Assembly (NCBI GenBank): GCA_051362555.1 | Contig: CM120645.1 | Coordinates: 11,160,001 to 11,224,000, forward strand | Origin: Lingula anatina | Taxonomy: Eukaryota; Animalia; Brachiopoda | Direction of reading: 5' to 3' | DNA length: 64,000 nt | Shown: one piece after another, positions 25,515-50,636 of the stretch | How the letters are laid out: each line of letters opens with the position of its first letter | Numbering within the stretch: the first letter of the stretch is position 1 | Translations under genes and position numbers: made by a program | Notes under the pieces: model-generated | What the model was told of the DNA's origin: nothing | The model's input: only the letters and a program-made list of their open reading frames with translations | Database searches by the model: none

Positions 25515-25877
25515 ATGTAATATTTTATGAAAATTTAATTTATTTTTATTCTGGCATTTTCATTGTTAATTCTTATGAGCCTGAAGCCATATGCTAATTT
25601 TGTATTCTTCATCACCATATTACCTCTTGTGTATATCTAAATTTTGGTGTTGATTTTGCTGTACAGCCTTAATAATACGTAAAAATTGACAATTTGAAAT
25701 TAACTTATTTTGTGCATCAATTTTTGGCATTTATGTCTGTACATATGTAAGCTTTGTTGCCCTGTTCCATCTTTCAATGATTTAAAGATATCTTATTGTT
25801 GCTGAAGAAATTGGAGCAATTTGTTCATATTTTGTTTCATTTATAGCATTGTAAGCTACAAAGACAACAAATCATTG

Positions 25878-25941
25878 ATGGGATTGTTGCCGCTCCTTTT
25901 TCTGGTATTGATGGTGTGTGTCTCGGTCATTGACTCACAAG
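25878..25941 (+). CDS. Secreted EGF-repeat protein, signal-peptide exon
   Basis: Encodes MGLLPLLFLVLMVCVSVIDSQ followed by G|GTAAGT (phase 1). An acceptor ttatag at 25846 implies an upstream 5'UTR exon. Confidence 0.85.
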
Positions 25942-26319: not shown

Positions 26320-26430
26320 GCTCCTGCAACCCTAACCCTTGCCTCAATGGTGGGACTTGCACAATGTTAACTGAACATGCTTTCCAATGCACCTGTACCA
26401 ATCAATATTCTGGAGAATTTTGCACTGAAG
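26320..26430 (+). CDS. EGF exon A1 (canonical EGF)
   Basis: SCNPNPCLNGGTCTMLTEHAFQCTCTNQYSGEFCTE; phase 1-1, AG/GT, 111 bp. Confidence 0.9.
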
Positions 26431-27192: not shown

Positions 27193-27333
27193 CAAGGTGT
27201 GGGGAAAATGCCGTATGCATTTATGAACGTTTTGGGCTGCATTTTCCACAGATGAATGAGAGGTGCGATGAAAGATATGACTATCTGTGTGTTTGCAACA
27301 ATGGTTATGAAGGGGATGGATTTAATTGCATTA
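27193..27333 (+). CDS. EGF-like exon B1 (variable insert)
   Basis: RCGENAVCIYERFGLHFPQMNERCDERYDYLCVCNNGYEGDGFNCI; phase 1-1, ttttcag/GTAAGC. Confidence 0.88.
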
Positions 27334-27509
27334 GTAAGCATTATAAATTCTTCAGATTATTTATGAGGTTTGAAATCTGGGAGCATAAATAATAAAAATA
27401 AATAAAAAAAGTTCAGACAATTTTTTCATTTATTTACTCTAAATTAACAGTTGATTTTACCGTCTTATTCAATTTAATATGCAATTGTTTTTGCTAATTT
27501 TAATTTTAG

Positions 27510-27620
27510 GCTCCTGCAATCCTAACCCTTGCCTCAATGGTGGGACTTGCACAATATTAAGTGAACATGCTTTCCGATGCACCTGTACCAATCAATATTC
27601 TGGAGAATTTTGCACTGAAG
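27510..27620 (+). CDS. EGF exon A2
   Basis: SCNPNPCLNGGTCTILSEHAFRCTCTNQYSGEFCTE; phase 1-1. Not present in the ORF track. Confidence 0.88.
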
Positions 27621-28162
27621 GTAAGATTATAAAGAATTTGATAACAGAAAATGGTTGAGAGTTTATAGGCAGAAAAAAGTAGTAATAATAGATCTAGAAT
27701 GTTACATTTTTTCATAATTTGCCTTTTTAAAATTGTGAAAATAAACATTGTGACCTTTTATAATAAAATGCTGGCACATAAAAATACAATAGGGTGAACT
27801 GGAAGTGATAATAATTTCTTCACCTTAATATGAAGTCTAATCTTTGCAACTAAACCTGCACATCAATGGACCAGATGGCCTTGTGGTCAAGGTGCCCGTC
27901 TCCAGAACGGGAGGACGTGGGTTCGACCCTGTCCTGGGACATACCAGTCCTTTACATGGTACCTGCTCTCTCCCCGCTTGGTTCTCCGCACTTAGTTAAG
28001 TAGGGGTTGCAATGGGTAATTTCCAGGTGTGACAGTGACTTATATTGTTCCTGTATTAGTTCCGAGCACCTAATAGGGCAGTCAGGCTCTTCCCCAGGGG
28101 GGGTAAGAGCATCTTCACCCGGTGTGTATATTGACCAGGTGCCCATTATATATCCTATTATA

Positions 28163-28654
28163 TGTAACCGAGTGTTTTTTGTATTTTATAGCATGGCAAC
28201 AAAGTTGATTAGTTTTCCAAAAATTACCGTTTATTCAATTCAATTATGGCTTATAAAGTCATATGTAATAAAATGACATATAAAATGGCATATATAAGGC
28301 CCCCTGAAAAAGTACAAAGAGTATATTTTAATAAGGCCTATTTCATAAAGCTACATACGTACATACTGAAACTGAACGTGAGAAAAATATCGGTTTTCAT
28401 AAGACAACTACTATTACCCCTGTACTTACACTGTAACAACAAGATAGCGCTTGTATTCTCTTATATAATGTTATCTTTTATAATGAATAACTCTGAATAT
28501 GATACATTAATTATAAGTAAATACTAACCCTGACAGACAAATAAAAAAAAAGCCGAGAGCACAAAACACACGTGTCTCTTCGTCTCTCCACACACAGTGA
28601 ATGAATACTAAGGTCAAATTTACCGCGTGACTTCCGGCGTTACCGGAAGTTACA
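28163..28654. mobile_element. Probable solo LTR
   Basis: TGTAAC...GTTACA termini flanked by TATA on both sides, with an internal AATAAA. Absent from the paralogous introns. Confidence 0.55.
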
Positions 28655-28898
28655 TATATTCATGAGTGTCTTATCACTTGTCACATATATATGTCTGCAC
28701 GTCCACCATACTGGGTAACAACATTGGGACGTGGGCAACATGGCTTTGATCTTGGGAGCACGCTTTCCACTTAGAATATGCATTGCAACGTACTTAATAT
28801 TGATAATCTTTGTTTTCATTTCAATCACACTTAAGCCATGATAACATAAATGATGATAATAGAAGGGGACATGTCTTGACCAGGTGCCAACTTTACTT

Positions 28899-30723
28899 AG
28901 AGATTTCGAGAAGGCTTTCGATTCAATATCTTGGAATTTCGTATATAAAGTTCTGCATTATTTTAACTTTGGACCGGACTTAATACGACAGATAAAAACT
29001 ATGAACAAAAGTGTTAGCCTCTGCATAATTCCAAGCTGTGGATGCAGACAAGGCGATCCAGTTTCGTTCTATATTTTTTAATTTATGCGCCGAAATTTTA
29101 GCAATTTTATTAAGAAATAGTAAGGAAATTATAGGAATTATCATAAAGCAAAAAGAATATCTAGTATCACAGTATGCAGACGACACCGTACTATTTTTTG
29201 GATGGCACTGAAAAAACTTTTAAAAATGATCTGGACTTACTAATAAGTTTTTTAAATTTTCCGAACATTGTATTGAGCAAACTTAAGTGATTTGGTTGGG
29301 TTCGAAATGTAATGAAGATAAAACATTATGCACTGACTATAATATAGAGTGGACAAAAGGAAACTTCACAGTATTGGGAATCACATTTAATGCAGAGCTT
29401 CATAATATGGAGGAAATCAATTATAGGAATAAAATAGAGGCAATTGAAAAGGATATTAGCTCTTGGAATAGAAGAAATTTGACTCCCCTGGGAAAAATAA
29501 TAGTAGTCAAATCAATATTATTACCAAAACTCACTCATCTTTTTCTTTCTCCACCTAAACCTGAAGATAAAACTGTAAAGAAATTGGAAATTTTGTTCTA
29601 TGGATTTATACCTGTATGGAGCGGCAAGAGAAATAAAATAGCAAAAAAGGTCTTAGTTGAACCGCAGGAATATGAAGAATAAACAATGATCGACTAAGAG
29701 TATTTATAAAAAGTCTAAAACTAATCTGGATAAGGAGAATAATTATGAAGAAGGAAACCGAATGGACAAAACTATTCGAAGATTCTCAAAATATCAAAAT
29801 TGAAAATATATTTAAACTAGGCGATAGTTACCTAAAGAGATTTATTCTGGAAAGAAATAATTTGTAATTTAGCATAATTTCAAAAGGATATCGCGATAAC
29901 AGATAACACTAAGGATATTTTGAGAAAACCTTTATGGAATACTCCAGAAATCAGAATAGGTAATAAAGACATTTATTATAAGGCTTGGACAGATAAAGGT
30001 ATAACTATGATAAGTGAACTGCTTGATGAAGACGGACTCTTTTTAACGTTTGATAAATTTTGTAGACAATATCAGATTAATTGTCCCTTCACGGTATTTT
30101 AGGGGGTAAAAAACGCAATAACTAGTAAATGGCCTCAAATCGTGAATGTCAGGGATAGGACTGAAAGGCCCTTCCAGCCAAAATTTATTGAAATTATTTG
30201 TAAGGATTCAAAAGGATCAAGATCAATATATGACATAATTATTAAGAGTAATAAACCTTGTGAAGAATCGATATGGGAAACAATGTTCAACTTAGGAGAT
30301 AACTTCAACTGGAATTATACAGAAATATTTTTCAGTGCACTGTAGATACAAGTAAAAGGTGGTTGCAGTATCGAATAGTGCACATGATTTTAGCTACTAA
30401 CATGAATTTATATAAAATCAAGATAAAAGATAAATCACGTTGCACATTTTGGGAAGAGGGAGAGGAAACATTAAATCATCTTTTTTTTTTAATGTAAGGA
30501 GGTTCGGCCAATATGGCAAAAAAATGCAAAATCGGATAAAAGTCCAATATATATTAGTTAGATATCTTTTTTTGTCTCTAAGTATACTTTATATTATTTT
30601 CTTTATTATTTTATATCTGTTTCTCTCAATATGATCCTTTTGCCACTACAGGTATCGATAATTAATTATTTTATTAGTTGATTTACAATTGTATAGTTAT
30701 TCATTCTATTTTCTGCAATAAAA
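28899..30723 (+). mobile_element. 5'-truncated L1/Tx1-type LINE (decayed reverse transcriptase)
   Basis: Motifs DFEKAFDSISW, GCRQGDP and SQYADDT, plus a C-terminal Zn-knuckle remnant. Ends in AATAAAAA. 17-bp TSD AGGTGCCAACTTTACTT at 28882-28898 and 30724-30740. Confidence 0.92.
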
Positions 30724-30763
30724 AGGTGCCAACTTTACTTTAATTTTTAAAATCTGTTTTCAG

Positions 30764-30904
30764 GGTTTTGTGGGGAAAATGGCGCATGCGTTTATGAACT
30801 GTTTGGGATGCATGTTCCACTGATGAATGAGAGGTGCGATGAAAAAGACGGCTACCGATGTGTTTGCAACAATGGTTATCAAGGGGATGGATTTAATTGC
30901 ATTG
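30764..30904 (+). CDS. EGF-like exon B2
   Basis: FCGENGACVYELFGMHVPLMNERCDEKDGYRCVCNNGYQGDGFNCI; phase 1-1. Not present in the ORF track. Confidence 0.88.
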
Positions 30905-31455
30905 GTAAGCATTATAAATTCTTCAGATTATTTATGAGGTTTGAAATCTGGGAGTATAAATAATAAAGATAAATAATAAAAGCTCAGGCAATTTGTCCAT
31001 TTATTTACTCTAAATTAACAGTTAATTTTACCATCTTATTCCATTTAAAATGGGCAATTTTTATCTGTTACAAAAGAGTAAGTGATTTCATTCAGAGCAA
31101 TTAATTGTCTTGCTTGCTGTCAAGGGAACTTTGCTTGGGTCAGTGCCTGAGCAGTTATGCTTACAATTACCAACCGTGTAATCAACCTAGAGATTTCATT
31201 ACAGGGTGAAAGATAGTATAATGATCGTCTATTTATCTAGATACTTGTTTGTGAATATCTTGTGAAAAGTCAAGCTGTGGCCCTGGTAGAGGGTAGGCAG
31301 ACAACCTGGGTTGGGACTTACCTGTGTGTACTGCCAGGGCCTATACGCTGGTGGTGCAAATAATTCAAAGACTTCAATTCCATATACATAAGCTACAAAT
31401 GTAAACTGAAAGAGCATGCGTAACATGCAATTGTTTTTGCTAATTCTTTTTTTAG

Positions 31456-31566
31456 GCTCCTGCAATCCTAACCCTTGCCTCAATGGTGGGACTTGCACAA
31501 TATCAACCGAACACGCTTCCGTATGCACCTGTACCAATCATTATTCTGGACAATATTGCACTGCAG
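31456..31566 (+). CDS. EGF exon A3
   Basis: SCNPNPCLNGGTCTISTEHASVCTCTNHYSGQYCTA; phase 1-1. Confidence 0.88.
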
Positions 31567-32047
31567 GTAAAATTATAAAGACTTACATAACAGAAAATGG
31601 TTCATAGTTAATATGCTGCAGAAAAATGGTAATAACAGAATGTTTAATCTTTTCCTAATTTGCTTTTTTTAAATGTGAAAATAAACATTGTGACCTTTTA
31701 TAATAAAATGCTGGCACATAAAAATACATGTACAATAGAGTGAACTGGAAGTGATAATAATTTCTTCACCTTAATATGAAGCCAAATCTTTGCAACTAAA
31801 CCTGCACATCAATGGACCAGATGGCCTTGTGGTCAAGGTGCCCGTCTCCAGAACAGGAGGTCGTGGGTTCAACCCTGTCCTGGGACATACCAGTCCTTTA
31901 TAAATGGTACCTGCTGTCTCCCCGCTTGGCACTCGGCACTTTGCTAAGTAGGGGTTGAGACGGATAATTTCCAGATGTGACAGTGAGAGACATTGTTCCT
32001 GTATTAGTTCTGAGCACCTAATAGGGCAGTCAGGCTCTTTTCCCCAG

Positions 32048-35000
32048 GGCCCGGTTGCACCAACAGGGCGTAAAGGATGAGTGCGAATAAGGGGGTAAAA
32101 GTGCCCACTTTTGTACGTGAAAAATACATTGTAAATGAATGGAAAAAAATTGTTGCCAAATTAAAGTTGGGGTCTTACACTTTTATGATCCACTTAAAAA
32201 ACTTTTTTTATTGAATTTGAAATATAAAAAATTAATTTCAAAATGACCTTGTCAAATATTCATGAAAATGTGTGTTTTAGGGGGGGGGGGGGTCTGAGTT
32301 GCAATGCTACATATCTTTAGTTATAGTCGGGTGACAACTGTGAAATTTTGTAATTGGGTACAGAAGGTGCCCATGTAAAAAAGTAAGGCAATATGTGGCC
32401 AATCATTGTTTGTGATCAATATTTTCATTGCTTTATTTGTACATGTAGTGCTGATTGAAAGAAGAATCTTACAGTGACTTGAGGATAAAAGATGTTCATT
32501 TTCTATATGAGCCCCTGCCTCAGACAAGCTAATTATTCACGGTTGAAAAGACATGAATATAAGGAGAAATATATGTGAAAATCAGCTTGTCTGAGGGTTG
32601 GGCTCGATATGTACTCAAACTAAATAGGGACATTTTCAGTCCATATGCTAGCAGGCGGCCATGTTTATTCCTGCCATGAGGTAGCTTCTACATGCTTACA
32701 TAGGATGGCTAGGCAGATACAATGAAACTTGTGTACAAAAAGAACAACTCAAAATAAAATGTAGGTCTTTGAAAGGAAAATAGGGGTTAGAGTCAATAAA
32801 TTTTTTTCAATTACAACCAAAAAAAGAAGTAATTATCATGTAATGCATGCTATCAAAAAAATAAATAAATAAATAAAAGGGGAAATATGTATGGAAATAA
32901 GAGTCCAAATACAGAAAGTACATCTTACTTTCATTCTTATTTCTTAGGATTAAGAAAGATTAAATGTAAAATGTGCTTTAGATATTCGAAGTTATATTAA
33001 TTATCATAATAGCAGATGTACATTATGGTGGCTCCTACTTTATATAGAGACCAATGCTGTAATAGATCTCTACACATAAGGGTGGCCTGACCCAACCCCC
33101 TCTAATGGGCATGAAAGTACATTTTGTACAACCAAAATTGTTGTGTAAATGTCCCCTTTTATGTCTATTTTGCATAAAAAGTAAAAGAAAAGGCTCCATC
33201 ACACACACCCTAGTTTTGTTACTTATTACCCTGTACCTAATCTTCCACACCAGCACTATTCATAGTAGCTTTGCAGAGTTTTTTCTTCTTTTTTTCACCA
33301 AAATGCTATGAATGACTTCATTTGTCAAGGAAATCAGTGAAAACCTATTGACTTGGTAAATAGTCCATACAAGAGACCACCAGCCTATAATTAATACCAG
33401 AAGTTTACCAGATAAAGCAAGCTAGCCAATATACTGATGAGCATCTGCTAGATGGCCAGTTTGAAATCAGTGGTAAATGTGAGGTATCCAAACAGCCTTC
33501 TCCAAAACATAATTTTCGATTGTATCCCTGCCTCATGGCAAACCCCATATACCACAGGACTGAAGTGATATGTGCACAACTTCCAACTGTCTTGGAACCA
33601 GCTTTACACTGTCAGTACCAGCCACTGATGGGTCTAGTTTTTCTATGGGTGGTCTGAATCCATAATGTGTACTGGTGGCTAGATGTGTGAGGCAGGGATA
33701 CAATCGAAAATTATGTTGAGGAGAAGGCTGTTTGGATACCTCACATTTACCAAAATCAAGTGGTGACAGTATAAGTAATATACCACCCCTCCCTCTCTTC
33801 TCTAGGATTAAAAAAAAACAATAATTACTTTCCCATTTACTTGTGCCACACCACAATTATTTAACATATAACTCTTTTTACACCACAAAACAAGTTTCAT
33901 TAGAAAATCGTTTATGTAATATAAATGCTGAAACAAGTTGCTCTGACTGCATACAACAGGTAAATCCGGCTACCCCCCCAATATAACTCATTAAAAATAC
34001 TAAGTTACGATACCTCAAACCAAATAATATTTTTTCCATGCAACAAATATATGCATAAACTTTTTAACAGCAAATTATTTTTAAATTTTGACGATGGGCA
34101 CTTTGCCAATGGTTATTCGCACTCATCCTTTACTCGACTACGGCTGTCGTAAACCGCAACGCCTGGCGTCCGTGCGCCAGGTTTACTCTCCCTGCTTACG
34201 CCCGTTGCACCAAGACAAAAACTGATCGTCGCAACTACGCCCGAGTAACGCTCCGTTGCGTCACTAGCCAACAATACCTGGATGGTATAATTGGGCAAAT
34301 GAGGAGTTCTCAGCTGCAGTCATAATGGAATGATGACATAAATAAACACAAAAGGAGCATTTCAGTGACGGAGAAATTCATAAGCTAAATTATTCCATTT
34401 TGATTTAGAAATAAGAACGTTAAAATACGTTAACTTTGCTGTTGCCTTGGATATATAGCAATGAAATCGTAAATATATTCCGAATCAAAATATTATTATA
34501 GTGTGCTATGTATGCTATTATAGTATGCTGTTGTAAATGAGAAAAACGCGTTGGAGGCAGTGCGTATTTCTATTAATGGATTTGAACACCTTCACATTTG
34601 AAATCGAAACTATCGAGTCTGAAAATAATGCAAAAAAGCCAGCATTGCTTTCTTTTTATAATTTTACAACAGTGCCGACAATTTCATGACCTTTTTTATC
34701 TATGGTTACACCGTGAGGTACATATATCATCTAATTCAATCGATCTTACATCTTGGAGATTGAGAAATACAAGAGACCTAGCTAATACATATTATATGAG
34801 CATTAAAATGCTGATATTTTAAGCTTTCGTATCTATGTTTATATACAGTAAAATCTGAATGATATAAAATGTGAATAAAAATGACTATGGTTAGTTATGG
34901 TTTGTCAAAAATTGTGAAAAGAATTAAAGAAATTGTACTGCTGAGAGCCAAGGCGTGTCGACATGAGTGGTAAAATTTGATTTGAACACATGCTATTCAT

Positions 35001-35373
35001 GTACATGGCTACACACATAATGTATTTAATAATCACTTATATATATAATTAGTTTTTTAAAAACCAAGCTATGCAGACGGAAGTTTTGTGTAAAAAACAA
35101 ACAGATAACAACCCACATAATCTACGTTAACTACGATAATTGTCATCAAACTCTCTCTGTGCCAGCCTTGCCATAGTGCAAAACGAGCTACGACCGACTT
35201 ACTCCACCTAGCTGGCAGGCGTAAATTTACGACTAAGTTAAGACCGACGTAAACACTATTCCAGTTTGGTGCAACTGGCTTTTCTCGGGTGTAGCATTTT
35301 GCGCCCGCTTTACGCCGGCGCAACTCCTACAGGGGGGTACGCCTCACTTACGACCGGTTGGTGCAATCGGGCC
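32048..35373. mobile_element. PIF/Harbinger-like non-autonomous element splitting the SINE
   Basis: TIR GGCCCG(G/A)TTGCACCAAC and 3-bp TSD CAG. The SINE sequence resumes exactly after the element. Confidence 0.85.
32073..34130. mobile_element. Nested non-autonomous DNA transposon
   Basis: TIR AAGGATGAGTGCGAATAA / TTATTCGCACTCATCCTT with TA flanks. Confidence 0.8.
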
Positions 35374-35682
35374 CAGGGAGGCCAGAGCATCTCCACCCAG
35401 TGTGTATATTGACCAAGTGCCCATTATATATCCTATTATGTATGTCTGCACATCCATGATACTGGGTAATATCATTGGGACATGGGCAACATGGCCTTGA
35501 TTTTGGGAGCACGCTTTCCGCTTAGAATATGCATTGTGCTGTCCTTTATATTGATCATCTTTATTTTCATTTCAATCCCACTTAAGCAATAATTACATAA
35601 ATAAGGCAATAATTAAATAAATAATGTTTTGCGACATGTTTTGACTTGGTGCCAACTTTACATTTTTAAATTTTGTTTTCAG

Positions 35683-35817
35683 GGAGGTGTGGGGAAAATG
35701 GCGTATGCATGTATGGGCACCTGTATGTTCCACAGAGGAATATGAGGTGCGATGAAAGAGACGGCTACTTCTGTGTTTGCAAAAGTGGTTATGAAGGGGA
35801 TGGATTTAACTGCACCA
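35683..35817 (+). CDS. EGF-like exon B3
   Basis: RCGENGVCMYGHLYVPQRNMRCDERDGYFCVCKSGYEGDGFNCT; has a 6-bp in-frame deletion relative to B1. Confidence 0.88.
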
Positions 35818-36137
35818 GTAAGCATTATAAATTCTTCATATTATTTTTAGGATTTGAAATATGGGATTATAAATAATAGAAGCTCAATTTTGTTTCATTT
35901 ATTTACTCTAAATAAACAGTTAATCAGTACCACCAGTGTGTGGTTTTAGTCGTGACCCGTCTCGTACGGCTCCGTCGGTGGGCTGTGGCTCCACCGGCTC
36001 CGCCTTCTGGCACCAGATACAAGTCACCGTTACCGCTTCTCCTCCTAGACCGCAAGGACCAGTGTCTCTATCTCTTGGATTTAGGTCACATATAATCTCA
36101 ACTTGAACCCTCTGGTTTTTTGTCTCAGTTGGTGCAT

Positions 36138-36537
36138 CCCAGCGGGCAAATTATGTTGTTTTAACATTGAGACAACGCTGAACCATAACGTTGATAATAC
36201 GTTGAATAAACATTGGATTTGAAAGTTGACTCAACGTCAGGTAACAACATTGTATCAACCCCAGTTGTTAGACAACATTCTTGCATGAAAGACATTAAAA
36301 TGACCTGAATTGTTTTTATTTTGGATACAAAACTCAGGTACACAATTATAACGCACCACTGTCAAAACATCCAAGTGCCTGCTATGTCTGATTTTTTCAA
36401 CGCATTTAGCTCCTAAGCATGTTTTGCACCTAAGCATGGTACACCCTTTTAGCCTGGACGTGTTTAGCAGTAGGACATGTTCGACGGCTAAATACTTGTA
36501 GGGTATACATGTATGGCCTTTAAGTTATAATTTCCAA

Positions 36538-36596
<59 letters not shown>

Positions 36597-37065
36597 CATA
36601 GTAACAGTCACCTCAACCTGTTTATTTATAACAGAGTACCGAGAACTGTCAACTTTATTAACTTCACTCCATCACATTTACAGCAATTTATTCATCCTAG
36701 CGTTAGCTGACCTTGCAAGGAAGTTTATTGGAATGTATTTCTGAATAACAAGTTAAGAAAATTCACTAGTTCACCAAAGACACAAAACAACTGTCACTTT
36801 TACTTTAAAACACTTTTTTTATTATTTTGATAAAGTTAGTTACAGTATTGATAAACAAAGTATCACGTTTTCAATAAATATTTTAAATTACAATCCATGT
36901 CTGCTAGGTTGTGTCAATGACCAAAATACAAAGTTGAGTCAATGTCACATTATGACGGTGTTTTGACGTTCCTGTATCATTTTACGTTGAATTCACGTAA
37001 ATCAATGGCAATTCAACGTATCAACCTGTTTTCAACATTGATCCAACACGACTATGCCTGCTGGG
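36138..37065. mobile_element. Non-autonomous TIR element (EnSpm/CMC-like)
   Basis: CCCAGCGGGCA...TGCCTGCTGGG termini, a 2-bp TSD AT and subterminal (A)ACGTTGA repeats. Contains a (TA)n tract at 36542-36594. Confidence 0.6.
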
Positions 37066-39621
37066 ATTGGCCTGGGCGTGACGCTGGTTGAAACGCACCC
37101 TTGTCAAAATTTTTGAAAATTCAATGCCAAATATCTCCTAAACCAAAGGAATTATGGGACAAATTACTATAGAAGTCTGACTGAAAGTCATATGTGAAGA
37201 TTCCAAATATGTCCTTGGATTTTACCTTTGACCTTTATTTAAAGGTGAAACGGGCCAAAATTTTCTAAAAATAGGAATTTTTTGAAAAAAAAATTGTTTG
37301 TGCCAGTTTTCAGAAACTACACTGACCTAAGCTCTCACATTACAGTGGGAGCTTACAATAAGGGACTTTTTTCATTTTTGAAAGTTTGGGGTAAATCGGT
37401 GCATTTTCACTGGACAAGCAGCCATTAGATACCAAAACTGAAAACTCTCCCTAATTCGTGAACCGTAAATGCTGTAGACCTCAGGATTTTTGCAAACTGT
37501 AGAACTTGTCCAGTGCAATACTGAAGGTACTGTTCGTTTTTTAGTTTTTGATATGGTTTAGGAGTTGCGCTATATCAAAAAGTATAATGTCGCAATATTC
37601 AGTGATGAAAATAAAATGTGAAATACTTTTGAAATACTTTTGTGAAATAAATTAGCAGAGATAAGCCCATAGTTACTTATGAACTCAAATAGGAAGTCAT
37701 ATCCGGGCAATCTTACTGTGACTTGAAATTGACCATTGACCTACTTTTAACCATGAACTGAACTTTGCAAATTTTCTATCCCTTACATCTCCAAAACTGG
37801 CAGAGATGTGCCAATAGTTCCTACTGAATTTGAATAAGAAGTCATATACTAGCAATCTGTGACCTTGAAATTGACATTTGACCTACGGTTCACCAACGTT
37901 CCGCCTACGTTTCGCCTACGTTCAACCAACTTAATTAATTTTGCATATTTTTCCTCTCTTATATCTTTAAAACTGGCAGAGATATGCCTGGTGTTGCCCC
38001 TGGGTTTCAATGTCTACAAGTTGGCAGGGCAATTTAAGCTTCCAACAAAAGGGGATTCTCCCCTGGAAAATTGCTTATAACCAGGGGCAATTCGGTGTAT
38101 TTAAGGTTATTTGGAACAGATTTTTCAACATTTTATGTGGGACATATATGTCTTGTTGAAGATGAAAAGTGTGATGTAAATATAGCTCAGATGACCTTTT
38201 ATGAGTGAATAGATAATGCAGCCAATAATTAACATTGCATGCTTGACTTGTTAAATAGCCCTCAAAATGCACTCCCAGGCAGTCTACCACGTACACTGAA
38301 GTGTTAAAAACTAGGTGAACTCAGAAATGCTTGGGAGAAACAGTGATTGGCGCCACAATGTGTGGAGAGTGAAAAGTCCTCACTCTTGGTCTCTGTCTCT
38401 CAATATATATGTTTAGTACACTGCTTTTTTTAATTTACAGACACAGATGTGTCTGTACATATAGCTGTCACCTGCCTCTGTCGTCACCGTAGCCATCTGC
38501 CGTCACCACGCACTTCAGTGATAACACAATAAGTGGAAAATGGTTCTTTTTTCTTCAATCTTATGGAACTAATTTTTCTTAATAAAATACAGTTTGAAAA
38601 TGAGCATGATCGAGCCATGTTTTCAAAAGTCATACTGTTTTTTTCTTTTCTAGCATATATGTGTAACAGACCGATAGCTTGGGCTGATGTTACTTTATTA
38701 TTATTATTCAAATATCTGCAAATATCTGCAAAAGCAATATAAACAAATTAATTTCAAACAATTACATTAACAAAATTTACACAGACGAAAGACACGGAAG
38801 ACAGAACAAAGAAATAAAAATATAACAATGCCAAAATCACCATAAAAATAAATACATCAATTTAGAAATGTATGAATTTCAACTATGGATTGGGACCTTT
38901 ATTAAATATAGTTAAACTTACCTGCAAGATCACTGGAATAACTATTTCAGTTATTCAACCTGCATCTCCGTCCGACTTTCAGGAGGATATCAAATTTTAT
39001 GGGGCACGGTCTTTCAACCCGTGACCTCCACGTACACATACGAAAATACACGACACAGAACACAATCACCACAAACACAACAAACACAACAAACCTTACA
39101 TATGCAACACTGATAACACATTTCAAGGAAAACCAATGGGCCCATTGTCTTGAAAATCAAAGGGGTAATTAATGTTATGAAAATACAGGCTGAGTTCAAA
39201 TATCTGCTTGATCAAACCATTTTTACAAAGATTATCCAGTTTTTCGCTTCTTTTGGCCTATTTTGAGAACTAGTTTATTGCACTTTGTAGAGTTTGTCAA
39301 GCACAGCACTGTTGTTGTTGTTGGGGGGGGGGGGGGGGGGGGGAGGGTAGCGCTTACCCCTGCTGGTAGTACAATATCCGGAGGCGGTATAGCCTCTCTG
39401 ACCATCTAGTTTAACCATCTTATTTAGTTTAGAAGGGGCTATTTTTATCTGTCATAAAAGAGTAAGTGATTAAATTCAGAGCAATTAACTGTCTTGCTTG
39501 CTGTCAAGGGCACTTTGGTTTGATCAGTGCCTGAGCAGTTATGCAAATAATTACCAACCATGTAATCAATCTAGAGATTTCATTACAGTATCAGAGAGTA
39601 AAATGACCATCTATTTATCTA

Positions 39622-40840
39622 CACTGATGCTCATTGGTTAAGCAACACCACGATTTTTTTCAAAAGTTTCTTCTATCATGATCTTTATTTCATTTGTTAG
39701 TGGGATTATGCATATTTCTCTCATATTTTATAAATAACTTATTCAAGTTGAATATTTCTGTTAAAGAAATACACCACATAGCTTATTGTAATAACAAAAA
39801 TAACTTTATTAACCAAACGGTACCAAAATATGCCAAACCATGTGTCTAAAAAGTATGGTCACACAACAAAAAGTACGTGCTGATTAAAACAGCTTATAAT
39901 GGAAAAATAAAGTTCAATCATCTAACTATCTTTGAATTAGTTTTAATAAAAGAACACTGTTGATAATAGATGGTCAATCGTCCATTATGCAACGAATATT
40001 GGGTGTGGCTTCCCTGGTTTTGAACAACGGCTTCACATTGTCTCCTGCAATTTGCCACCAATTTCTGTCAATCTTGCTTGGGAGCCGGTTCCATTCCTTT
40101 GAGGCAAGGGTTGCCTGCTGGTGCTCTCTTATGTTTCCGACTGGGGGTTGTCTCTCATTTACTGCTCTGCATCCATACCGTAAGCATATTGGTGAATATG
40201 CAGGCCAATCCAAATTTGTGCTGCTGTAGTTCTTCCACAGACCGTGCTTTATGCATGGGCGGATTGTCCTGCACCAAAATGATTTTCCTTTCTGGATTTG
40301 CTTGAATACATGATTGTATGCACCCCAATGGTATTTTGTCTCCGTATCGTTGACCAGTGAACCTTCCTTGAATGACGTGCAGTACGTGGCAATTTTTCAT
40401 CATATGAGAAACCGCACCATCCTATGACGGATACTGTGTCACCCTGAACACGTGGGAGAACGCAATCATCCCGAAACGCTTGGTTTGGACCTCTTTCAGA
40501 CTCCTAGCCGGCCATCTGCATGCATCAAAGTGAATCTGCTCTCGTCAGTCCACACGACCCTTCGCCAAGTCCTGAGATTCCATCTTTCTCGGTATCTTGC
40601 TCATGCCAATCTTCTCTGCCTGTTTCTGTTGGTTGACAGTGGCTTTTCACGGGGTCTTTTAGATGAAAGTTCAGTTTGTAAAAGATGCATGTTGACTGTT
40701 TGCCTACTGATTCCAGCTTTTCATAATTTAGGCCAGATATTTCTCAATCGTTTGGCTGACATAAGCCTGTCCTAGCTGGTGGCATAGTCGAACAAAACAT
40801 CTTCTATCTCTTGCGTCGGTTAATATTGGTCTACCACCGG
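39622..40840 (-). mobile_element. Tc1/mariner transposon remnant
   Basis: Frameshifted DDE motifs WRRVVWTDESRF, ILVQDNPPMHKAR and DWPAYSP. One end (TA|CACTGATGC) is present; the other is lost. Confidence 0.88.
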
Positions 40841-40882
40841 CACTTAGAGAGCATTTACATCGAGAAGAGCCGACGTCTAGCA

Positions 40883-41123
40883 AGGCCGAGACCTTAATAT
40901 GGCAGACCTAAATGAAAGGAAAACCGCCTTGTCCTTTAATGGTCTCTCCGCCTCTCACACCCCTCCCCGCACGTCGTCCCTGCACGGGCACACTAATTAA
41001 ATCTTGGCTCAATTCAACTGGTCGAGGGACGATGCGTGGGGAGCCGTGTGTGAGGCAGAGAGACCATTGAAGGCTTATGCAGTCTTCCTTTCATGTAGTT
41101 CCGCCATATTTAGGTTTCGGCCT
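40883..41123. mobile_element. Palindromic MITE
   Basis: Long imperfect inverted arms (AGGCCGAGACCTTAATATGGC / GCCATATTTAGGTTTCGGCCT; AATGGTCTCT / AGAGACCATT). Confidence 0.65.
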
Positions 41124-41558
41124 CTTCTTAATGTAAATGCTCTGTTAGTTAAGTAGAGGTTAAAACAGGTAATTTCCAGATGTGACAGTGAGAGACATTG
41201 TTCCTGTATTACATTTTGTAGCTCTGAGCACCCAAAAGGGCAGTCAGGCTCTTTCCCCCAGGGAGGCAAGAGCATCTCCACCCAGTGTGTATATTGACCA
41301 GGTGCCCAATATATATCCATTATATATTTCTGTGCTTCCTTGATACTGGGCAAAATCATTGGGACATGGGCAACATGGCCTTGATTTTGGGGGCACGCTT
41401 TCCGCTTAGAATATGCATGCATTGTATTGTTCTTTATATTGATCATCTTTATTTTCATTTCAATCACACGTAGGCAATAATTACCAAAATAATGATAATA
41501 GAAAGAGACATGTCTTGACCAGGTGACAACTTTACATTTAAAAAAAAATTGTTTTCAG

Positions 41559-41684
41559 GGAGGTGTGCGGAAAATGCCGTATGCAATTATGAAAGCTTTG
41601 GGCCACAACCTCCACAGAGGAATGTGAAGTGCGATGTCTGTGTTTGCAAAAGTGGTTATGAAGGGGATGGATTTAATTGCACTA
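41559..41684 (+). CDS. EGF-like exon B4
   Basis: RCAENAVCNYESFGPQPPQRNVKCDVCVCKSGYEGDGFNCT; has a 15-bp in-frame deletion relative to B1. Confidence 0.85.
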
Positions 41685-41869
41685 GTAAGCATTATGAATT
41701 ATTTATAGGGTTTGAAATTTGGGAGTATAAATAATAAAAATAAATAATTTAAAATTTATTTACTCTAAATAAACAGTTAATTTCACCAACTTTGCTTGGG
41801 TCAGTGCCTCAGCAGTTATGCAAACAATCACCAACCATGTCATCAACCTAGAGAATTAATTCATTACAG

Positions 41870-42016
41870 GGTCGGTGAGGTGTGGGGAAAATGGCATTTG
41901 CATTTATAGACCGCTGGGGATATCTGTTCCATACATGAATGAGAGGTGTGATGAAATAATTGGCTACTATTGTGCTTGCGTCAGTGGTTATGAAGGGGAT
42001 GGATTTAATTGCAACA
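41870..42016 (+). CDS. EGF-like exon B5
   Basis: SVRCGENGICIYRPLGISVPYMNERCDEIIGYYCACVSGYEGDGFNCN; cattacag/GTAAGC. Not present in the ORF track. Confidence 0.85.
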
Positions 42017-44093
42017 GTAAGCAGTAAAAATTCTTCAGTTTATTTTTAGGGTTTGAATAATAAAAATCTATAATAATTTTTTTTTTTTCATTTATTTCAT
42101 TTCTTTAAATAAAATCTTTAATTTATCAACTTATTCAATTTAATGTCATAACATGACTAAATCTTCATGGTATCATATTGTAACTTTGATTACTAGTATG
42201 TTTATTTGACATGTTATGTAATGATTGGTGGTTTTCTTAATATATGAAAGCCTGAATTGGACTAACTTAAAAGATGTAAAGCAATACACTGAATACACTA
42301 AAATTTGATCATGCTGTTCATAATTTTTTTCGTTTTTACTATTTGAAGCAACCAGAGCTGCACAGATATCTAAGAATTACAGGAAGAAGGCTGATTTATT
42401 ACGAAAAACACTAACAAAATCATATTAGATTTCTGATTATTTTCAAGGGTAGTGCCAAAAATTTCTAAGCGTTACTTGGCAAACATTGCAAGGAAAGTGA
42501 ATTACCTTAGGAACAAGCTAATTGGGCCTTTCTTGTCCAGTTTAAATGATTTAGAAATGCTAGAAATAAGGTTTCAGGTATTCACTAGACTATTTTATAG
42601 CCATTAAAACCCAAGTTAACCCAAACCACAGTTGCTAGGCAGCATATAACCCTAGCAACAAGCATTTAAAAGTTGCATTAGGCTATTAAATAAGGGAAAT
42701 CGGGAATCAGGGGCAATAATATGTGGACCTTGACTAAAGGTTGATTAAAATGATAAAAGCAACTTCTAATCCCCTTTGGCAAAACATGATTCTATGAGTG
42801 TAATTCAGGAAAATCCCAGTATAACCCCAGATGAAACCCTATCACAACCGTTGTGGAAAAACTCAAAAATTGAAATAGTTGGTGTAAAAAAGGTATATTT
42901 CATAACAATAATATCATCAATGACGTTTGAAATGTCCTCCCTCCAGAGGAACTCAACAAAAAATTCAACTTTAACACTAATATTCTGGACTAATGCAGTA
43001 TCCAAAAGATTTTACCATCTCTTCCCATGGAAGGAAATTACCCATAAAACAATTGTTTTAATTTTTAAAAAAATTACCGAACCATCCAGATATTTTTTTA
43101 CCAACAAATCTGTTTTATCTGTCCCCAGATAAAAGTGTAGATGAATGGCACACAAATATTTAAGAAACAGATCACCCGAAACTGCCAAAGCTTCAATTCA
43201 GAATAAATCATGAATATTCAGTACTGATGTTTATCTTATTATTATTATTATTATTATTATTATTTTTTTTTTTTTTTTTTGAAAAAGAATCAGAACAGTG
43301 TGAATTTCGCAATTCTGCTAAGGAAATATTCTTCACGTTTTTTTTCTTTTTTTTTTTTTTTTGGAGTGCCCACACAGGCCTAACCAACTACCAGACTTTT
43401 CACCGAATGATCCCGAATTCACCAGTGGGTAGGAACACCCTACCTGTTTTCAATTTGTGTATCAGTACACATTTCACAGAATCATACCCTGGAACAAATT
43501 TTGAGATGAGATGTAGGCCCTACTACCGCCTCCGGGTATTGTACCACCAGCTGAAGTAAGTGCATTCATATATAAAAGAAAAAAAGGAACACCACCTCCA
43601 GTGTTGTGTTTGACAAGCTCTGCAAAATGCAGTAAACAAAACTTCTCAATTTTTTTATTGAAAATTACAGTTTAAAACAAAATCATAGGGAAAAGTAAAA
43701 ATTTAAATCCTAAATTGTGTAAATGATTCATGTACAATATAAAACACTTCTGTATTCACACTACCTCCAGCATAGAAAATAACAGGGAACTTGCTTTAGC
43801 CAAGCATACCTGTATGTAAAATAAAATTGCTTCATTATTCTCATCATTTAATCACTTAGTCTATAAAATGTATTTATTTTCATAATTAATACTAGTGAAA
43901 GTAAGGACTTCGTGTTTGTGAACCTTGGCTGGAAACACTGAGATGATATCCAGTCAAAGTCAGATCTCTGTGCCACATGTTGTGGACCCGACGGGGTGCA
44001 ATCAAAATCATCTTGGCCAAGTGATATCACTAGACTGCACCGTGGGACAGTGTAGGAAATGTAACCAAGCACACCTCTCAAGTGGATAATTTC

Positions 44094-44819
44094 TCATATA
44101 TTTTTATAAATCAGTTCATATTTTGGCACGTCCCTGGGGTCCAAGGGGCTGGTCACCATCACCTTGCCCTTCAGGGCCCCATGGTATAAAACCTCCACAA
44201 CATCGATGAAGTCTTGCTTGGCCTTGAAGTTGCCGATGAACTTGGTGTGACCTGGTGTGCTGAAAATAACGATGAATATTTAAGAAATGATTCATGTGCA
44301 TATACCTTATAAACCACATATATTTTGAGAAAATTTGTTCATAAACCATGAATTCAAGTCCTCAAACAATCAGTAAAAGTATACATTGTTACGTGACATT
44401 GGTTAGAAAACCAAGACTTGGGTAATGCTAGCAATATTTTCCGCTTAATCAAACCACTATTTTTTAAATCATTTTTCTCCTAATGGTTTAAATTTGACTA
44501 CAGTCAAACCAACCCAGCTTTGTTTAGCAAATGTAAGTCATTTTAAGCAATTATATATTGGCAAGTATAAGCGCTACCCCAGCCAGTAAGATATGTCTTT
44601 AGAAATAGTCAGTATATATTATGCCATGATTAGATCCTTTCAACCAAGTCAAATTCAGACCACTCACCCCCAGTCCACCTTCATGTGCTGTCCATTGAAG
44701 AAGAAAATGGTGGCAGGTATCAGAGTGATGTCAAGGTACTGCACATACACCGGGACTTCGTTCACTGCCCCACAGTAGATCACCGCCATCTTCCTCAGCT
44801 GCTCTGCAGTCTTTGATAG
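44094..44819 (-). pseudogene. TXNL4B: TXNL4B partial copy 2: exons 44819-44668 and 44259-44094
   Basis: Same two exons with intact splice sites, but substitutions at conserved residues (TPGHTKFIGNFKAKQ, LYHGALKG). No first exon was found. Confidence 0.8.
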
Positions 44820-47596
44820 CTGCAAGACAGAAACAAGGCAGCATTTCATAAATTATATTACTAATTTTATTGATGTGTTGAATAGGACAGTCCTATATAT
44901 TATACAAGATAAAATGTACATTGATTAATGATTATGGAAATGAAATAAAGAACTCAAATAAGGTTATTATATATTTCATGATATATATAACTTAAACTGC
45001 GGGCATGCTGAAATGCACCCTACTATATTTGTCAAATGGATTGTGTAAGCTTAATGCTTAACAGAAAAAATAGGTCTAAACCTGGCAAGGTAAATTCAGA
45101 TCAACAAGGAGAAATATATGCAAATGAACATGGTTGTGATTGGATGATGTCTCACGTGGCCCATCAAGAGGGACACTGCCACACTGAAACAGCATTGAGG
45201 GAAACAGCCTTGCTACTGGGAGGTCTCACTGCCTGATTAGAAAGGGTAAGTTTTATCACTACACTGGCACAGTATTAAATCAGGCCTGGAAAACAGTCAT
45301 GCTTTTGCTAATTTGAGTCCCAAATTAACAAATCTAGCTATGAATTAAGTGCCCCAACGAAAAATTAGTTGCCACAAGTCTGGAATGATTTTCACGAAAG
45401 GTTTACTTTTAATCGTAAGTAAACAGGTGAAATACAGGGTATCACAAAGCATAAGGGCGTTATGCTGCAAACAACCCATTTTGAACGCAATCGTCATCGC
45501 TGCCGAACAACCTGAAATCATGCCTATACAATATTAGGAGATGCACGTCGAGTAAAAGATTCAACACCTGGGTGCCCAGCACTATTATGAAAAGGAAAAA
45601 TGACTTGACGTTTCATGCACAATCATCATCGAAAGCCTTATATCAATATGCTGCATGCGCAGTCGATTTTTATCAAAATAAAAAGTGTGTTTCATACAAG
45701 CAAAATCTAACTTTCCTTTATAACTGTTACTGAACAGCGAAGAGTTACATAAACCCAGTTATAAAATTACAAATGTTATTATGAGGCTAATTTCTCTAAT
45801 GTGGAATGAAATATTTTGTTGGCTTTCAAATGGTAGGACACTCACTTTAATCTTAAAAGAAGTTAGTTAATGTGCTCGTTCCCCTAACGCGGTGCCAAAA
45901 GGTCCCATCAAATAACCAGATACACATCTGTCTATACTGGTAACTAGTGAAAATCTATCTGTGGCCTTTGATAATGGGTAGACACTCACCGCGTTAGTTG
46001 CGACAATGATTATTTCTTCACAGCGATTAAATCATTTAATTATTAAATCATAATATATTTATTACATTATTTGAAATAATTTACCTTTTTTTAATGATTT
46101 ATACCATCTAATTTTTATCTTTTTTATTTGATTCTTAATGTCATCTAATTATTTACTTAATTCTTTAAATAATTTATTTATTTATTTATCAAGCCCGTAG
46201 CCAGCAATTTCAAAGGGGGGGGGGGGGGTCTTTTTCTGAAAAAGTGGACCTTTTACCGAAAAATCCCCATGTACTTATGTCAAATTTTACCCAGAGTGGA
46301 CCTTTTTTCAGCAAAAGGGGGTTCTTTCGAACCTCTTGAACTCCCCCTGGCTGCGGTCCTGTTTATTTATTTATTTATTCATTTATTTATTTATTTATTT
46401 ATTAAGATTTTCTATTATTATCCTTTTACGGATTCGCTCTATTATTTTATATAAAATGTAACTTAATGTAGTAATTGAGGCAACACGTCAGCTTGTAATG
46501 TGAATAAATTGTTTTAATAATGTCTCTTTCTTTGTTATTTCTAAACAGTAATCTATTTTTACACAGGTCGCGATGATGAAAATTTGTGTACGGAGCATCT
46601 TTAAACTTTTTGAGACGGGGTGATTTGTTGATCATGCTGATGTACGATGCTGATGCATGTTTATCAAATTCAATTTTTGGCCACAGAACACTTCATATTG
46701 AATTGAATAACTGATACTAAATCAAACTAGCAGTTATCTTGCAAAACTTAAAACATGATCAGCTGCGCGTGCCAAGCTAGTGAACATAAGGATAGGTGGC
46801 CACGGGAGTGGCACGGGTTAGCATGGGTTCTAGCATCTTAAAGCTATAATCCTATCGCCGCAACAAACAATGGGCACCTTCTTGCTGATGTATCCTGCTG
46901 TTACTACACCAATTCACAGCGGATTGTCGCGCTCGCGCTGGACCACAGAAACAGGCGTCATGGGGTTCACTCGCCTAAGGTATTGTGTGTTATTACGCCT
47001 AAACTATTATGTTTTTGCGTTCGAATTTTGAAGGGATTAGACGGCTTTCCATTGTTTGTCCGCCCCCTTCTATTCACAGGATAGGGATTAAAACATTCTG
47101 ACGCTTTTAAAACGTCGTACAACGGAAACATAATTATTATTTCTACTGTACATGCTGTCTCCCTGCTTGGCATATGGCACATAGCATAGAAGGGGTTGAA
47201 ACGGGTAATTCCCGATTTGACAGTGAGGAACATTGTTCCTGTATTAGCTCTGAGCACCTAATAAGGCAGTCGGGCTGTGTTTTTTCCTGGGAGGCAAAAA
47301 CATCTCCACCCAATGTGTATATTGACTAGGTACCCATTATATATCCATTATGTATGTCTGCACGTCCATGATGCTGGGTAGCAACAGTGGGACATTAGCA
47401 ACATGGCGATGATTTTGGGAGCACGCTTTCTGCTTAGAATATACATTGTATTGTGCTTTATCATAGAAGTAGAGAAACTTCTATGGCTTTATATTGATCA
47501 TCTTTGTTTTCATTTCAATCACACTTAAGCCATAATAACACAAATGATGAAAATAGAAATGGACATGTCTTGACCAGTTGCCAGCTTTGCATTTTT

Positions 47597-48432
47597 AGGA
47601 TTCTCCATAGGGGAATACTATTGTTTTTCCTGTTCTTCTTCTTCTTATTATTTTTCGTCAAAAAATTTCTTTCTAAAATTCTGAAAAAATTCATACTGAT
47701 AGCCTATGAAAAGTTATTCCGGTCCACCTAATTTTTTTTACCTTGACCTAATTTTCAAGGTCACAGAGCCTTTTAAAGTGAACATTTTGCAAATTTCAAA
47801 ATGCAATATCTCCTAGAATTTTCAACATTTTGACAAATCCTTTCAAAGGTGAGGTCGCACAATGATTTTACATCATCTGACCTAATTTTAGGAAAAGTAC
47901 GTCAGGTCAAGGTCAACTTATTGCACGATATGCTCTAAGTGGTTGGCATTCGACAGGGGGTAAATCAGATGTCACAGAGCCACAAGGATGATGTAAAAGG
48001 TTGCCCTAGATATCTATCCAGTGCAGTCGCTAATAATATTGACTATTGACTGATTAGATATTTTAATATAGATTTTTTTAATATTAATAATGTCACAGAA
48101 ATGGTGACTTTGTCAATTTCTTCATGAAATATTGATTTTTTGTGATAACATGCTATAGTAAACTACCCCAAACATATACCCAACACCCTCAAATCAAATA
48201 TCAAATTTGACCTTGACCCTCCTTTTCAAGGTCAGTCGGCTATTTCATGAAGAAATATTGAAGTGGGCTAAAAGTGATGTTTCGTTGACCCCCCCCCCCA
48301 ATTCGCACATGCTCTTTCAGAATAAGGGATCAAATTTAACCCATGACCTTCACATGACCTTGTAAGAGCATTTCCACACCTATTTTGAAGGGGAATCTTC
48401 CGCCACTGGCTGTATCCAGTTGCAGTCTAGTT
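47597..48432 (+). mobile_element. HINE-like element inserted just upstream of the exon B6 acceptor
   Basis: GATTCTCC/GGGAATC subterminal inverted repeats, (TTC)n, a 3' hairpin ACTGG-CTGTAT-CCAGT, then CTAGTT. Absent in the paralogous introns. Confidence 0.55.
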
Positions 48433-48447
48433 TTAGTTTGTTTTCAG

Positions 48448-48588
48448 CTAGGTGTGGTGAAAATGGCATATGCACTCTTGAATCCCTTGGACTGCATTTT
48501 CCATTAATGAATGAGAGGTGTGATGCAAAATATGGCTACCGATGTGTTTGCAACTCTGGTTATGAAGGAGATGGATTAAATTGCACCA
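48448..48588 (+). CDS. EGF-like exon B6
   Basis: RCGENGICTLESLGLHFPLMNERCDAKYGYRCVCNSGYEGDGLNCT; phase 1-1. Confidence 0.85.
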
Positions 48589-48879
48589 GTAAGCATTATA
48601 AATTCTTCAGATTATTTATGGGGTTTGAAATCTGGGAGTATAAATAATAAAAATGAATAGTAAAAGCTCAGACAATTTTTTTCATTTATTTACTCTTAAA
48701 TAAAAAATTAATTTTATCATCTTATTCAATTTAGATGGGGCTATTTTTATCTGTCACAAAAGAGCAGTTGATTACATTCAGAGCTATTAACTGTCTTGCT
48801 TGCTGTCAAGGGGACTTTGCTTGGGTCAGTTATGCAAACAATTACCAACCATGTAATCAACCTAGAGATTTAATTACAG

Positions 48880-49026
48880 GACCAGTGAGGTGTGGAGAAA
48901 ATGCTATATGCATTGATCGATCTTTTGGGCAACAAATTCCATTCATGAATGAGAGATGCAATGAAAAATATGGCTACCGATGTGTTTGCGCCTATGGTTA
49001 TGAAGGGGACGGATTTAATTGCATCA
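48880..49026 (+). CDS. EGF-like exon B7
   Basis: PVRCGENAICIDRSFGQQIPFMNERCNEKYGYRCVCAYGYEGDGFNCI; attacag/GTATGC. Confidence 0.85.
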
Positions 49027-49339: not shown

Positions 49340-49350
49340 GAAACACCTAA
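49340..49350 (+). CDS. Probable terminal exon of the EGF gene ((R)NT*)
   Basis: Strong acceptor tttttctttttttacag, an in-phase TAA, and AATAAA motifs immediately downstream. Confidence 0.55.
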
Positions 49351-50636
49351 TAAATCTCCCAAATAAAGCAATGTAATGAAAAATCTGCTAAAGAGGACGT
49401 CTATTTCAAGCAACCAGAACTACACAATTATCTAAGAATCACAGATGGAAGTTAGATTTATTCAGAGAAACACTAATAAAATAATATTGGTTCCACATTT
49501 AGTGCATCAATTTCATTTATACAGATGAAAATTAAAAAAAAAACTTGGCATTGCATGTGGTACTTTTTAAGTGATTCCTCATTGTCCGTAATATTATATT
49601 TATGAAAATTAAGCCATTATCCATATTGACAATATGTAAACATCTGACCTTACAGATCGATATGGGACAGCATATATTGTGGAAATTGCTTTGAATGTGG
49701 GACAAGCATTGAAGTTGGCACAAATGTTCTTTGGACTATCCTGATCATTTTCAAGGACAGTGGCAAAAATTTTGTGTCGCTTAGTTGCTAGGGAAGTGAA
49801 TAACCTTAAATCACGGTCACAACCGGTCTTCAAAACTATCACTAGACTATTTCAGGGCCATTAAAACCGAAATAACCGAGTACCGAGTAATAAATTGTGG
49901 ACCTTGACGAAAGGTGGATTAAAATGATAAAAGCAACTTCCAATCTTTGAGTGAAATGCAGGAAAATCCCAGTATAATCCAAGATGAAACCCTATCACAA
50001 CCATTATGGAAAATCTCAAAAATATAAATAGACGTAAAAACTGTTTTCGTAGTTTAAAAATTAATTGAAAGACTTTATTTTGTTTGCTTATATATAAAAA
50101 GTATAGTTACTAGCCAGTTACTTGCGATGGCTGATTTCAGTTTTTAATGCCTTAAAAGAGTCTAGTGATAGTTCTTATGGCCTGAAACATTATTAACAAC
50201 CTTTCCAAATCATTTAAACTGGAAAAAAAGTTCAAATTAGCTTGTTACTAAGGTAATTCACTTCCCTAGCAATGGTTGCTAAGCCACACTTTGGAATTTT
50301 TGGCACTACATTTGTTCCAAGTTTCATGCTTTTTCCACCTTCTGAGCAATTTTAATCACCAATCACATTCAATATTACTATTAGTGAATAGTGCTCAGTC
50401 TCATAGTCACACACATTAAAGAAGACTAGGGAGTGACCAAACGCTCAGTATAACTCATACATGTATAATGTATCAGTAATGTTGCAACCAACCTTTATGT
50501 TGCCTACCCTAATGTTGCAACCACCCGTATACATTTGAAAACCAAATATTGAAACAAAGTCGTCATCCGAGGAAATAATTCAAAACAACTGACAATTCAG
50601 AAGACTAGAATCCACTTTTTTCTTCATGTCAAGTAA

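Follow-up and report, generated by a model that had tools for sequence, protein, structure and literature searches.

The 64,000-nucleotide stretch of Lingula anatina DNA analysed here (contig CM120645.1, positions 11,160,001 to 11,224,000 of the forward strand; hereafter the window) contains an array of seven variant EGF exons belonging to a real and apparently undescribed, Lingula-restricted EGF family with strong hypervariability.

Architecture of the array

An earlier note had described seven open, phase 1-1 B exons with intact splice sites and quoted their loops; all of this was confirmed for 7/7 exons, and a six-frame scan gave exactly seven exons of the described frame at 27193..49026. 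Each is preceded by AG and followed by GT and has a length divisible by three, the donor being GTAAGC in six of them and GTATGC in B7. Alignment of the seven modules left 16 of 46 columns invariant, including six cysteines. Downstream of a signal-peptide exon, three ordinary EGF exons (A1–A3) alternate with B1–B3, and a three-codon stop exon follows B7. All ten internal exons (A1–A3 and B1–B7) are phase 1-1 with AG/GT ends, and the 12 exons joined in order encode 461 residues, free of stops and frameshifts and with intact splice ends. The prediction of a secreted EGF-like protein, likewise made earlier, agrees with the signal-peptide exon and with the EGF modules found in the family. The features of the array are:

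25847..25941, + strand: signal-peptide exon (ATG at 25878, phase-1 donor; 20/21 residues match RefSeq P0002)
26320..26430, + strand: A1, canonical EGF exon with O-fucose consensus (Pfam EGF 32.7 bits vs cut-off 21.5)
27193..27333, + strand: B1, variant EGF exon (alignment, splice sites; structure modelled)
27510..27620, + strand: A2, canonical EGF exon (splice sites, open chain)
30764..30904, + strand: B2, variant EGF exon (alignment, open chain)
31456..31566, + strand: A3, canonical EGF exon (splice sites, open chain)
35683..35817, + strand: B3, variant EGF exon, loop shortened by a 6-nt deletion
41559..41684, + strand: B4, variant EGF exon, 15-nt deletion in Cys24-Cys32
41870..42016, + strand: B5, B-prime type exon (acceptor 6 nt further upstream; extended linker as in RefSeq P0002)
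42290..42430, + strand: remnant of a terminal exon, acceptor deleted (self-comparison of 42339-42426 with 49401-49488)
44094..44819, - strand: copy b of the last two TXNL4B-like exons, within the array (several replacements)
48448..48588, + strand: B6, variant EGF exon (groups with module 3 of RefSeq P0001, XP_013415194)
48880..49026, + strand: B7, B-prime type exon (nearest to modules 2 and 4 of XP_013415194)
49340..49530, + strand: terminal exon and 3-prime untranslated part (stop 49348-49350; RNA reads of relatives cover it and splice it to B exons)
63940..64000, + strand: second copy of the signal-peptide exon, its start only, at the window end (self-comparison)

The acceptor of B5 and B7, 6 nt upstream of that of the other B exons, was created by a deletion junction; the RefSeq models agree with it, and no such joint was present in the RNA runs examined. 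The earlier statement that the 6 and 15 bp indels are in frame holds for the deletions in B3 and B4, but the longer one is not a loop indel: it lies between Cys24 and Cys32, where two residues remain in B4, possibly a degenerate module. B4–B5 and B6–B7 are duplicates of one unit. Since the array is broken up by a TXNL4B fragment and by transposons, it may comprise two genes.

Read-through past the B donor (27334-27400 for B1, and the corresponding position behind B2, B3, B4, B6 and B7) is open for 16-19 codons and ends at a common stop in 6/7 copies, with AATAAA close behind in 6/7. A tail resembling this read-through terminates RefSeq isoforms of distant paralogs; in the RNA runs examined, about one read covers the read-through. 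It is either an alternative short C-terminus or a conserved start of the intron.

Cysteine spacing and predicted fold of the B module

Scanned alone, none of the seven B exons passed any EGF-clan cut-off in Pfam (best scores 25.8 vs 26.6 for cEGF and 24.7 vs 28.5 for EGF_3), and the matches fell mainly in the C-terminal half; A1, the one of the three A exons scanned, exceeded the EGF cut-off. The module starts C-x5-C and lacks the canonical six-cysteine spacing, i.e. the first cysteine and the short C3-C4 hairpin. Among 1,278 modules ending in the motif of B, the usual spacing was C2-x5-C3-x8-C4; a C3-C4 gap of at least 11 residues occurred in nine, seven of which have the Lingula spacing.

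The AlphaFold model of B1 (pLDDT 73, about 60 in the loop) has strands at 6-12, 15-19 and 30-34. Superposition on the EGF domains of NELL1 and nidogen-1 matched 31 of the 46 residues on an unbroken 31-residue stretch with an rmsd of 1.4-1.6 Å. The best structural match had a Z of 3.8 (rmsd 3.4, 35 aligned) and the next one 3.4 (rmsd 1.6, 31 aligned); all 11 aligned chains are EGF-bearing, drawn from a Foldseek-preselected set. In a wide structural search, Z reached at least 2 for three of 48,161 chains. Foldseek gave no match at E 0.001, a search of PDB sequences returned C-terminal-half matches only (best E 0.008), and Atlas searches returned generic EGF clusters only, at 0.85-0.91. The structure model of P0002 was poor (pLDDT 54). 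As the Z values are low (2-3.8) and low-confidence stretches had been trimmed beforehand, the fold of B stays a prediction.

The 31 superposed residues equal the length of a canonical domain measured from immediately before C2 to immediately after C6, and the other 15 residues are therefore read as an insertion. The model thus suggests that the B module is an EGF domain without its first cysteine, plus a 15-residue hairpin insertion carrying a new one. Canonical EGF disulfides connect C1-C3, C2-C4 and C5-C6. With the first cysteine missing, also directly after the signal peptide in XP_013415194, the invariant Cys24 is the sole free partner of Cys8 (C3). Cys24 of the insertion would then replace the lost first cysteine and pair with Cys8, and the variable loop would consequently be closed by a disulfide. 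Alternatively, B may be a canonical EGF whose loop between C2 and C3 measures 15 residues. In a distant B module (P0088 module 2 and P0163 module 2), a seventh cysteine is located inside the loop and could link chains.

Loop variation and selection

All seven loops differ, and 10/11 same-length modules from the window and RefSeq carry different loops. Across the seven B exons the nucleotide difference was 0.323 in the loop, 0.291 in the Cys24-Cys32 segment and 0.136 in the scaffold, and that of the introns 0.118 downstream and 0.115 upstream where alignable (4/21 pairs). The introns had been judged by eye to be more alike than the loops; the loop exceeded the downstream intron in 21/21 pairs and 2.7-fold overall, the local alignment used somewhat flattering the likeness of the introns. 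The picture of a variable loop on a conserved scaffold was right about the loop but incomplete, as the Cys24-Cys32 segment, a further patch beyond the loop, is nearly as variable. Positions 18 and 21 have stayed conserved, as has the loop's end.

Purifying selection on the cysteines is clear, with 42/42 Cys codons kept (omega 0). For the loop we consider positive selection probable. Loop and scaffold had pairwise dN/dS values of 1.06 and 0.55, respectively. Likelihood models based on exon silent sites gave an omega of 1.3-1.6 for the loop, which was picked for the tests because it is visibly variable, vs 0.52-0.54 elsewhere; the loop value is not significantly above 1 (p 0.08-0.28), and a faster loop with omega 0.7 fitted better than the loop-omega model (p 0.04, 0.008). 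M2a was favoured over M1a at p=0.004 and gave an omega of 2.5-2.7; the sites concerned are 9, 11, 12, 15, 16, 17 and 19 in the loop and 6, 28, 31, 35, 36 and 46 outside it. This result held at p<0.05 on three other trees and in 6/7 drop-one sets (p 0.19 without B5, p ≤0.03 for the others). Allowing a loop rate changed p to 0.010, allowing doublet changes to 0.011 and allowing both to 0.074, and under a null with loop rate and doublets but without positive selection the observed statistic was reached in 7/29 simulations.

Calibration on 542 intron columns raised the loop omega to 2.8-3.9 (p ≤1.5e-6). Equal intron and silent rates were rejected (LRT 4.1-11.6), the introns evolving 0.43-0.49 times as fast as exon silent sites, and with the intron rate left free the loop omega was 1.4-2.0. 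Duplicates of TXNL4B in the window differ by 0.06-0.15 at silent sites vs 0.08-0.21 in introns. As silent sites do not outrun introns there, either the introns flanking the B exons are unusually conserved or the B silent sites are carried along. Silent differences at unchanged residues were alike in loop (17/128 codon pairs) and scaffold (48/401), the pairs not being independent, and the loop excess thus sits in residue-changing codons; of the 165 residue-changing loop pairs, 91 involve changes to two or three bases. A recombination test, weak in itself, gave no signal (p 0.12-0.28). The mean omega of 0.9-1.0 at non-Cys codons counts against the selection reading, as relaxed constraint gives the same value. 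In short, the diversifying selection proposed earlier is backed by the intron contrast and M2a, but neither by the exon-only omega nor by the null simulations.

CpG hypermutation was rejected as a cause of the loop variation, each loop containing 0-1 CpG. In the A exons (26322-26429, 27512-27619 and 31458-31565) the changes are mostly at the amino-acid level (9/11 variable codons alter the residue) and clustered between the third and fourth cysteines, the place of the B insertion.

Family and distribution

A profile of the seven B modules (38 matches among 292 candidates) placed two L. anatina RefSeq proteins far ahead, with E values of 3.5e-94 and 1.7e-41. Scanning 1.84 billion representatives gave 487 matches; among the best 150 of these the whole module was found in three, all from L. 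anatina, and a further search (45 matches among 2,187 candidates) yielded no new full-module relative. The B spacing was found in 6/228 fetched proteins, all six from L. anatina and from four loci. Within reach of these searches, full-module relatives are confined to L. anatina, in line with the earlier view that the module is not a described family. A literature search for five RefSeq and one UniProt accessions found no citing paper, most subscription papers lying outside its scope; likewise, neither an EGF without first cysteine plus insertion nor a hypervariable secreted EGF exon array was found in the literature. The relatives XP_013415194, XP_013385403, XP_013418649-51 and XP_013389479 carry automatic names only. 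The automatic names in the family are adhesive plaque (matrix) protein 2, crumbs, jagged, stabilin and pro-EGF, five wrong labels that hide one family.

These relatives share the signal peptide, A and B modules and the cysteine spacing with the window array, XP_013415194 and XP_013385403 being 68-85% identical to it per module. Conversely, XP_013415194 has four B and one A module and the window seven B and three A, and order and loops differ. The nearest XP_013415194 modules differ from B1, B6 and B7 at 7-9 of 44 residues, and B6 groups with module 3 of this protein at 96/91 support. XP_013415194 and TXNL4B (XP_013415111) are each on a scaffold of 859,253 bases, and TXNL4B exons flank the window array; the shared scaffold length, which does not imply adjacency, suggests that the window holds the locus matching XP_013415194. 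In a distant subfamily, one identical module is common to two genes and the adjacent module differs in loop and second patch. One paralog has an exon-skipped isoform.

Expression

Six of nine RNA runs of the same species label, with 9.5-12.4 million records each, were examined. Relatives 80-95% alike were spliced in three of the six, all from one study (P3). Joints between signal-peptide and A-type exons numbered 56 (run X7) and 59 (X9) in ~11 million reads, A-to-B joints 7 (X7) and 6 (X9), and B-to-terminal joints 30 (X7), 13 (X8) and 35 (X9). At least five different B-to-terminal joint sequences occurred in P3, with several variants co-expressed in single samples. Neither X1 nor X4 had family joints among the joints listed, and X2 had zero depth on B6, B7 and the terminal exon. 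Reads 99% alike on the window exons numbered 0 in the three P3 runs, and a B6-to-B7 joint was absent from the joints listed. As the reads are mostly 80-95% alike, they show relatives spliced in array order and patchily among samples, not the window copy. Neither of two findings that had been named as speaking against the earlier proposal, loop divergence equal to that of the introns or a lack of transcription, was observed.

Surroundings of the array

The last two exons of TXNL4B are present in three minus-strand copies:

21950-22640, - strand: copy a, last acceptor lost
44094-44819, - strand: copy b, between B5 and B6 and opposite in strand to them
54880-55619, - strand: copy c, closest to RefSeq

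The first exon of TXNL4B was not found in the window. Identity of the TXNL4B exon is 98% to its L. anatina counterpart and 91% to that of the next named species. While the B-exon Cys codons are kept, the TXNL4B duplicates in the same segments decay. Uncollapsed haplotypes were rejected as an explanation of the duplications because the duplicated introns differ by 8-20%, vs the 1.6% heterozygosity reported for L. anatina in the available part of PMC4595640. A truncated LINE at 28897-30720 comprises a reverse transcriptase remnant and a ~17-base target-site duplication just before B2. This insertion accounts for the gap between A2 and B2, where a lost B exon was considered and rejected. Between A3 and B3, a 3.3-kb insertion with terminal inverted repeats occupies 32046-35374.

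Each A-B intron harbours a tRNA-like element (26668-26760, 27867-27942 and 31816-31890), scored as tRNA-Trp by ARAGORN and with 30.1 bits by Rfam at 27871-27937. It is probably a SINE, and run X1 contains stranded reads of a related sequence in very high abundance. Upstream lies the 3-prime part of a membrane protein gene (17820-20520, + strand) with a transmembrane exon at ~18576-18797 and a 219-residue tail exon. The tail has several tyrosine motifs of the kind present in signalling or immune receptors; a scan of 45 of 97 plus-strand frames in 1-21,000 yielded no ectodomain family. A CLCA-like gene begins its coding sequence, with a signal peptide, in an exon at 10958-11125 on the minus strand (Pfam CLCA, E 3e-4). 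Probable first exons of another gene, directed towards the array, lie at 62980-63625 on the minus strand, with a start near 63623 and a small exon at ~62981-63060; a Pfam search of the frame scanned gave no match.

Candidate functions

Our preferred reading, held tentatively, is a secreted EGF-only Lingula protein in which disulfide-closed hairpins form a binding surface selected against a changing, most likely microbial, partner. A string of small disulfide-locked modules would be secreted, each with its own hairpin tip and, next to it, a variable patch. Duplication of phase 1-1 exons would grow and shuffle the modules into multivalent proteins with different tips, with a putative role in defence at the body surface or in body fluid. 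Defence is favoured because many variants per genome and per RNA sample fit a repertoire against a varied foreign partner. More doubtful is the wider proposal that the rewired EGF with its disulfide-locked loop constitutes a germline repertoire of multivalent secreted non-self binders, new in Brachiopoda.

Gamete recognition is rather unlikely, yet it ranks close behind defence. Here, a secreted egg-coat or sperm protein would set compatibility by repeat number and variable surfaces, like oyster bindin or HrVC70. The repeats of oyster bindin, one to five in number, owe their diversity to selection, recombination and splicing, as described in the available part of PMC5712786; module number also differs between the window and XP_013415194, expression was observed in the three runs of one study but not in three runs of two others, and exon skipping in a paralog fits the same picture. 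Conversely, the RefSeq relatives lack a ZP module or membrane anchor (no ZP module was found in P0001, P0002 or P0088, and the window array closes with its three-codon stop exon), and read counts are modest (56-59 signal-to-A joints in ~11 million reads). A structural, mucus or adhesive matrix protein, of which only the cysteines and few core residues matter while the loops drift, is less probable again. EGF-only secreted proteins such as Perna Pvfp-5 match weakly, automatic naming in RefSeq gave adhesive plaque matrix protein 2, and both the non-Cys omega near 1 and the non-significant loop region test would be expected. Still, Tyr (5.2-9.3%) and Lys (3.4-4.8%) are far from the 18.8% and 9.4% of Pvfp-5, and drift alone does not give a loop change 2.7 times the intron level, unless the introns are constrained or converted. 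No small EGF-only protein appeared in the parts examined of Lingula shell proteome tables 25-26 (PMC4595640), whose gene ids cannot be mapped to RefSeq, and the available part of the PMC13425148 supplement gave 0 matches to family accessions.

In toxin and inhibitor families, fast exons and conserved introns go together with a frozen cysteine frame, and this combination is also seen here. A secreted inhibitor or deterrent, whose disulfide-closed loop is substrate-like towards proteases or receptors of parasites or predators, is nonetheless improbable: the seventh cysteine in the loop of one distant module would suit it, but no fixed position of the loop carries a basic or aromatic residue conserved among the modules, and neither sequence nor fold gave a useful-score match to inhibitor or toxin structures. 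Least probable by far is a decaying segmental duplication with most copies devoid of current function. Three partial TXNL4B copies, the transposon insertions and the lost terminal acceptor mark the region as unstable, the B4 deletion is drastic, and reads 99% alike on the exons are missing from all three P3 runs; against this stand the 42/42 retained Cys codons and 12 exons free of stops and frameshifts with intact splice ends.

Under the preferred defence reading as well as under a reproductive one, few molecular handles on non-self recognition in brachiopods were found, and the family offers a small one, with modules of 46 residues, a variable surface that is defined and a locus whose module number differs between genomes. 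If the cysteine rewiring is true, it would be a new way of building a variable loop on an EGF scaffold.

Comparison with known systems

The B family can be set beside several known systems, among them the domains of cEGF/EGF_3 type (nidogen, NELL, uromodulin, MSP1-19). These domains share with B the spacing C2-x5-C3 and C4-x-C5-x10-C6 and the GY.GDG motif, and their core superposes on the B model at 1.4-2.5 Å over 30-31 residues. In contrast to them, B lacks the first cysteine and first loop, and C3-C4 spans 23 residues with an extra Cys instead of ~8. An indel in an EGF loop is reported for a nemertean egg protein in the available part of PMC11673550. Ascidian HrVC70 varies between the third and fourth cysteines (PMC9265791, available part). 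The likeness of the B family to ascidian HrVC70/HaVC80 is convergent at most, HrVC70 deriving from a ZP-module precursor with 12 repeats and the B family being without ZP. Mussel mfp-2/Pvfp-5 are likewise small, secreted and EGF-only, and their repeats resemble the A module (E 2.8e-7), but they are Tyr/Lys-rich with canonical spacing, neither of which applies to the B family. Oyster sperm bindin is secreted; exons encode its one to five repeats, and selection together with changes in repeat number has diversified it, both repeat number and binding sites varying (PMC5712786, available part). Its fold is that of an F-type lectin, whereas the Pfam matches of the B family are to the EGF clan only.
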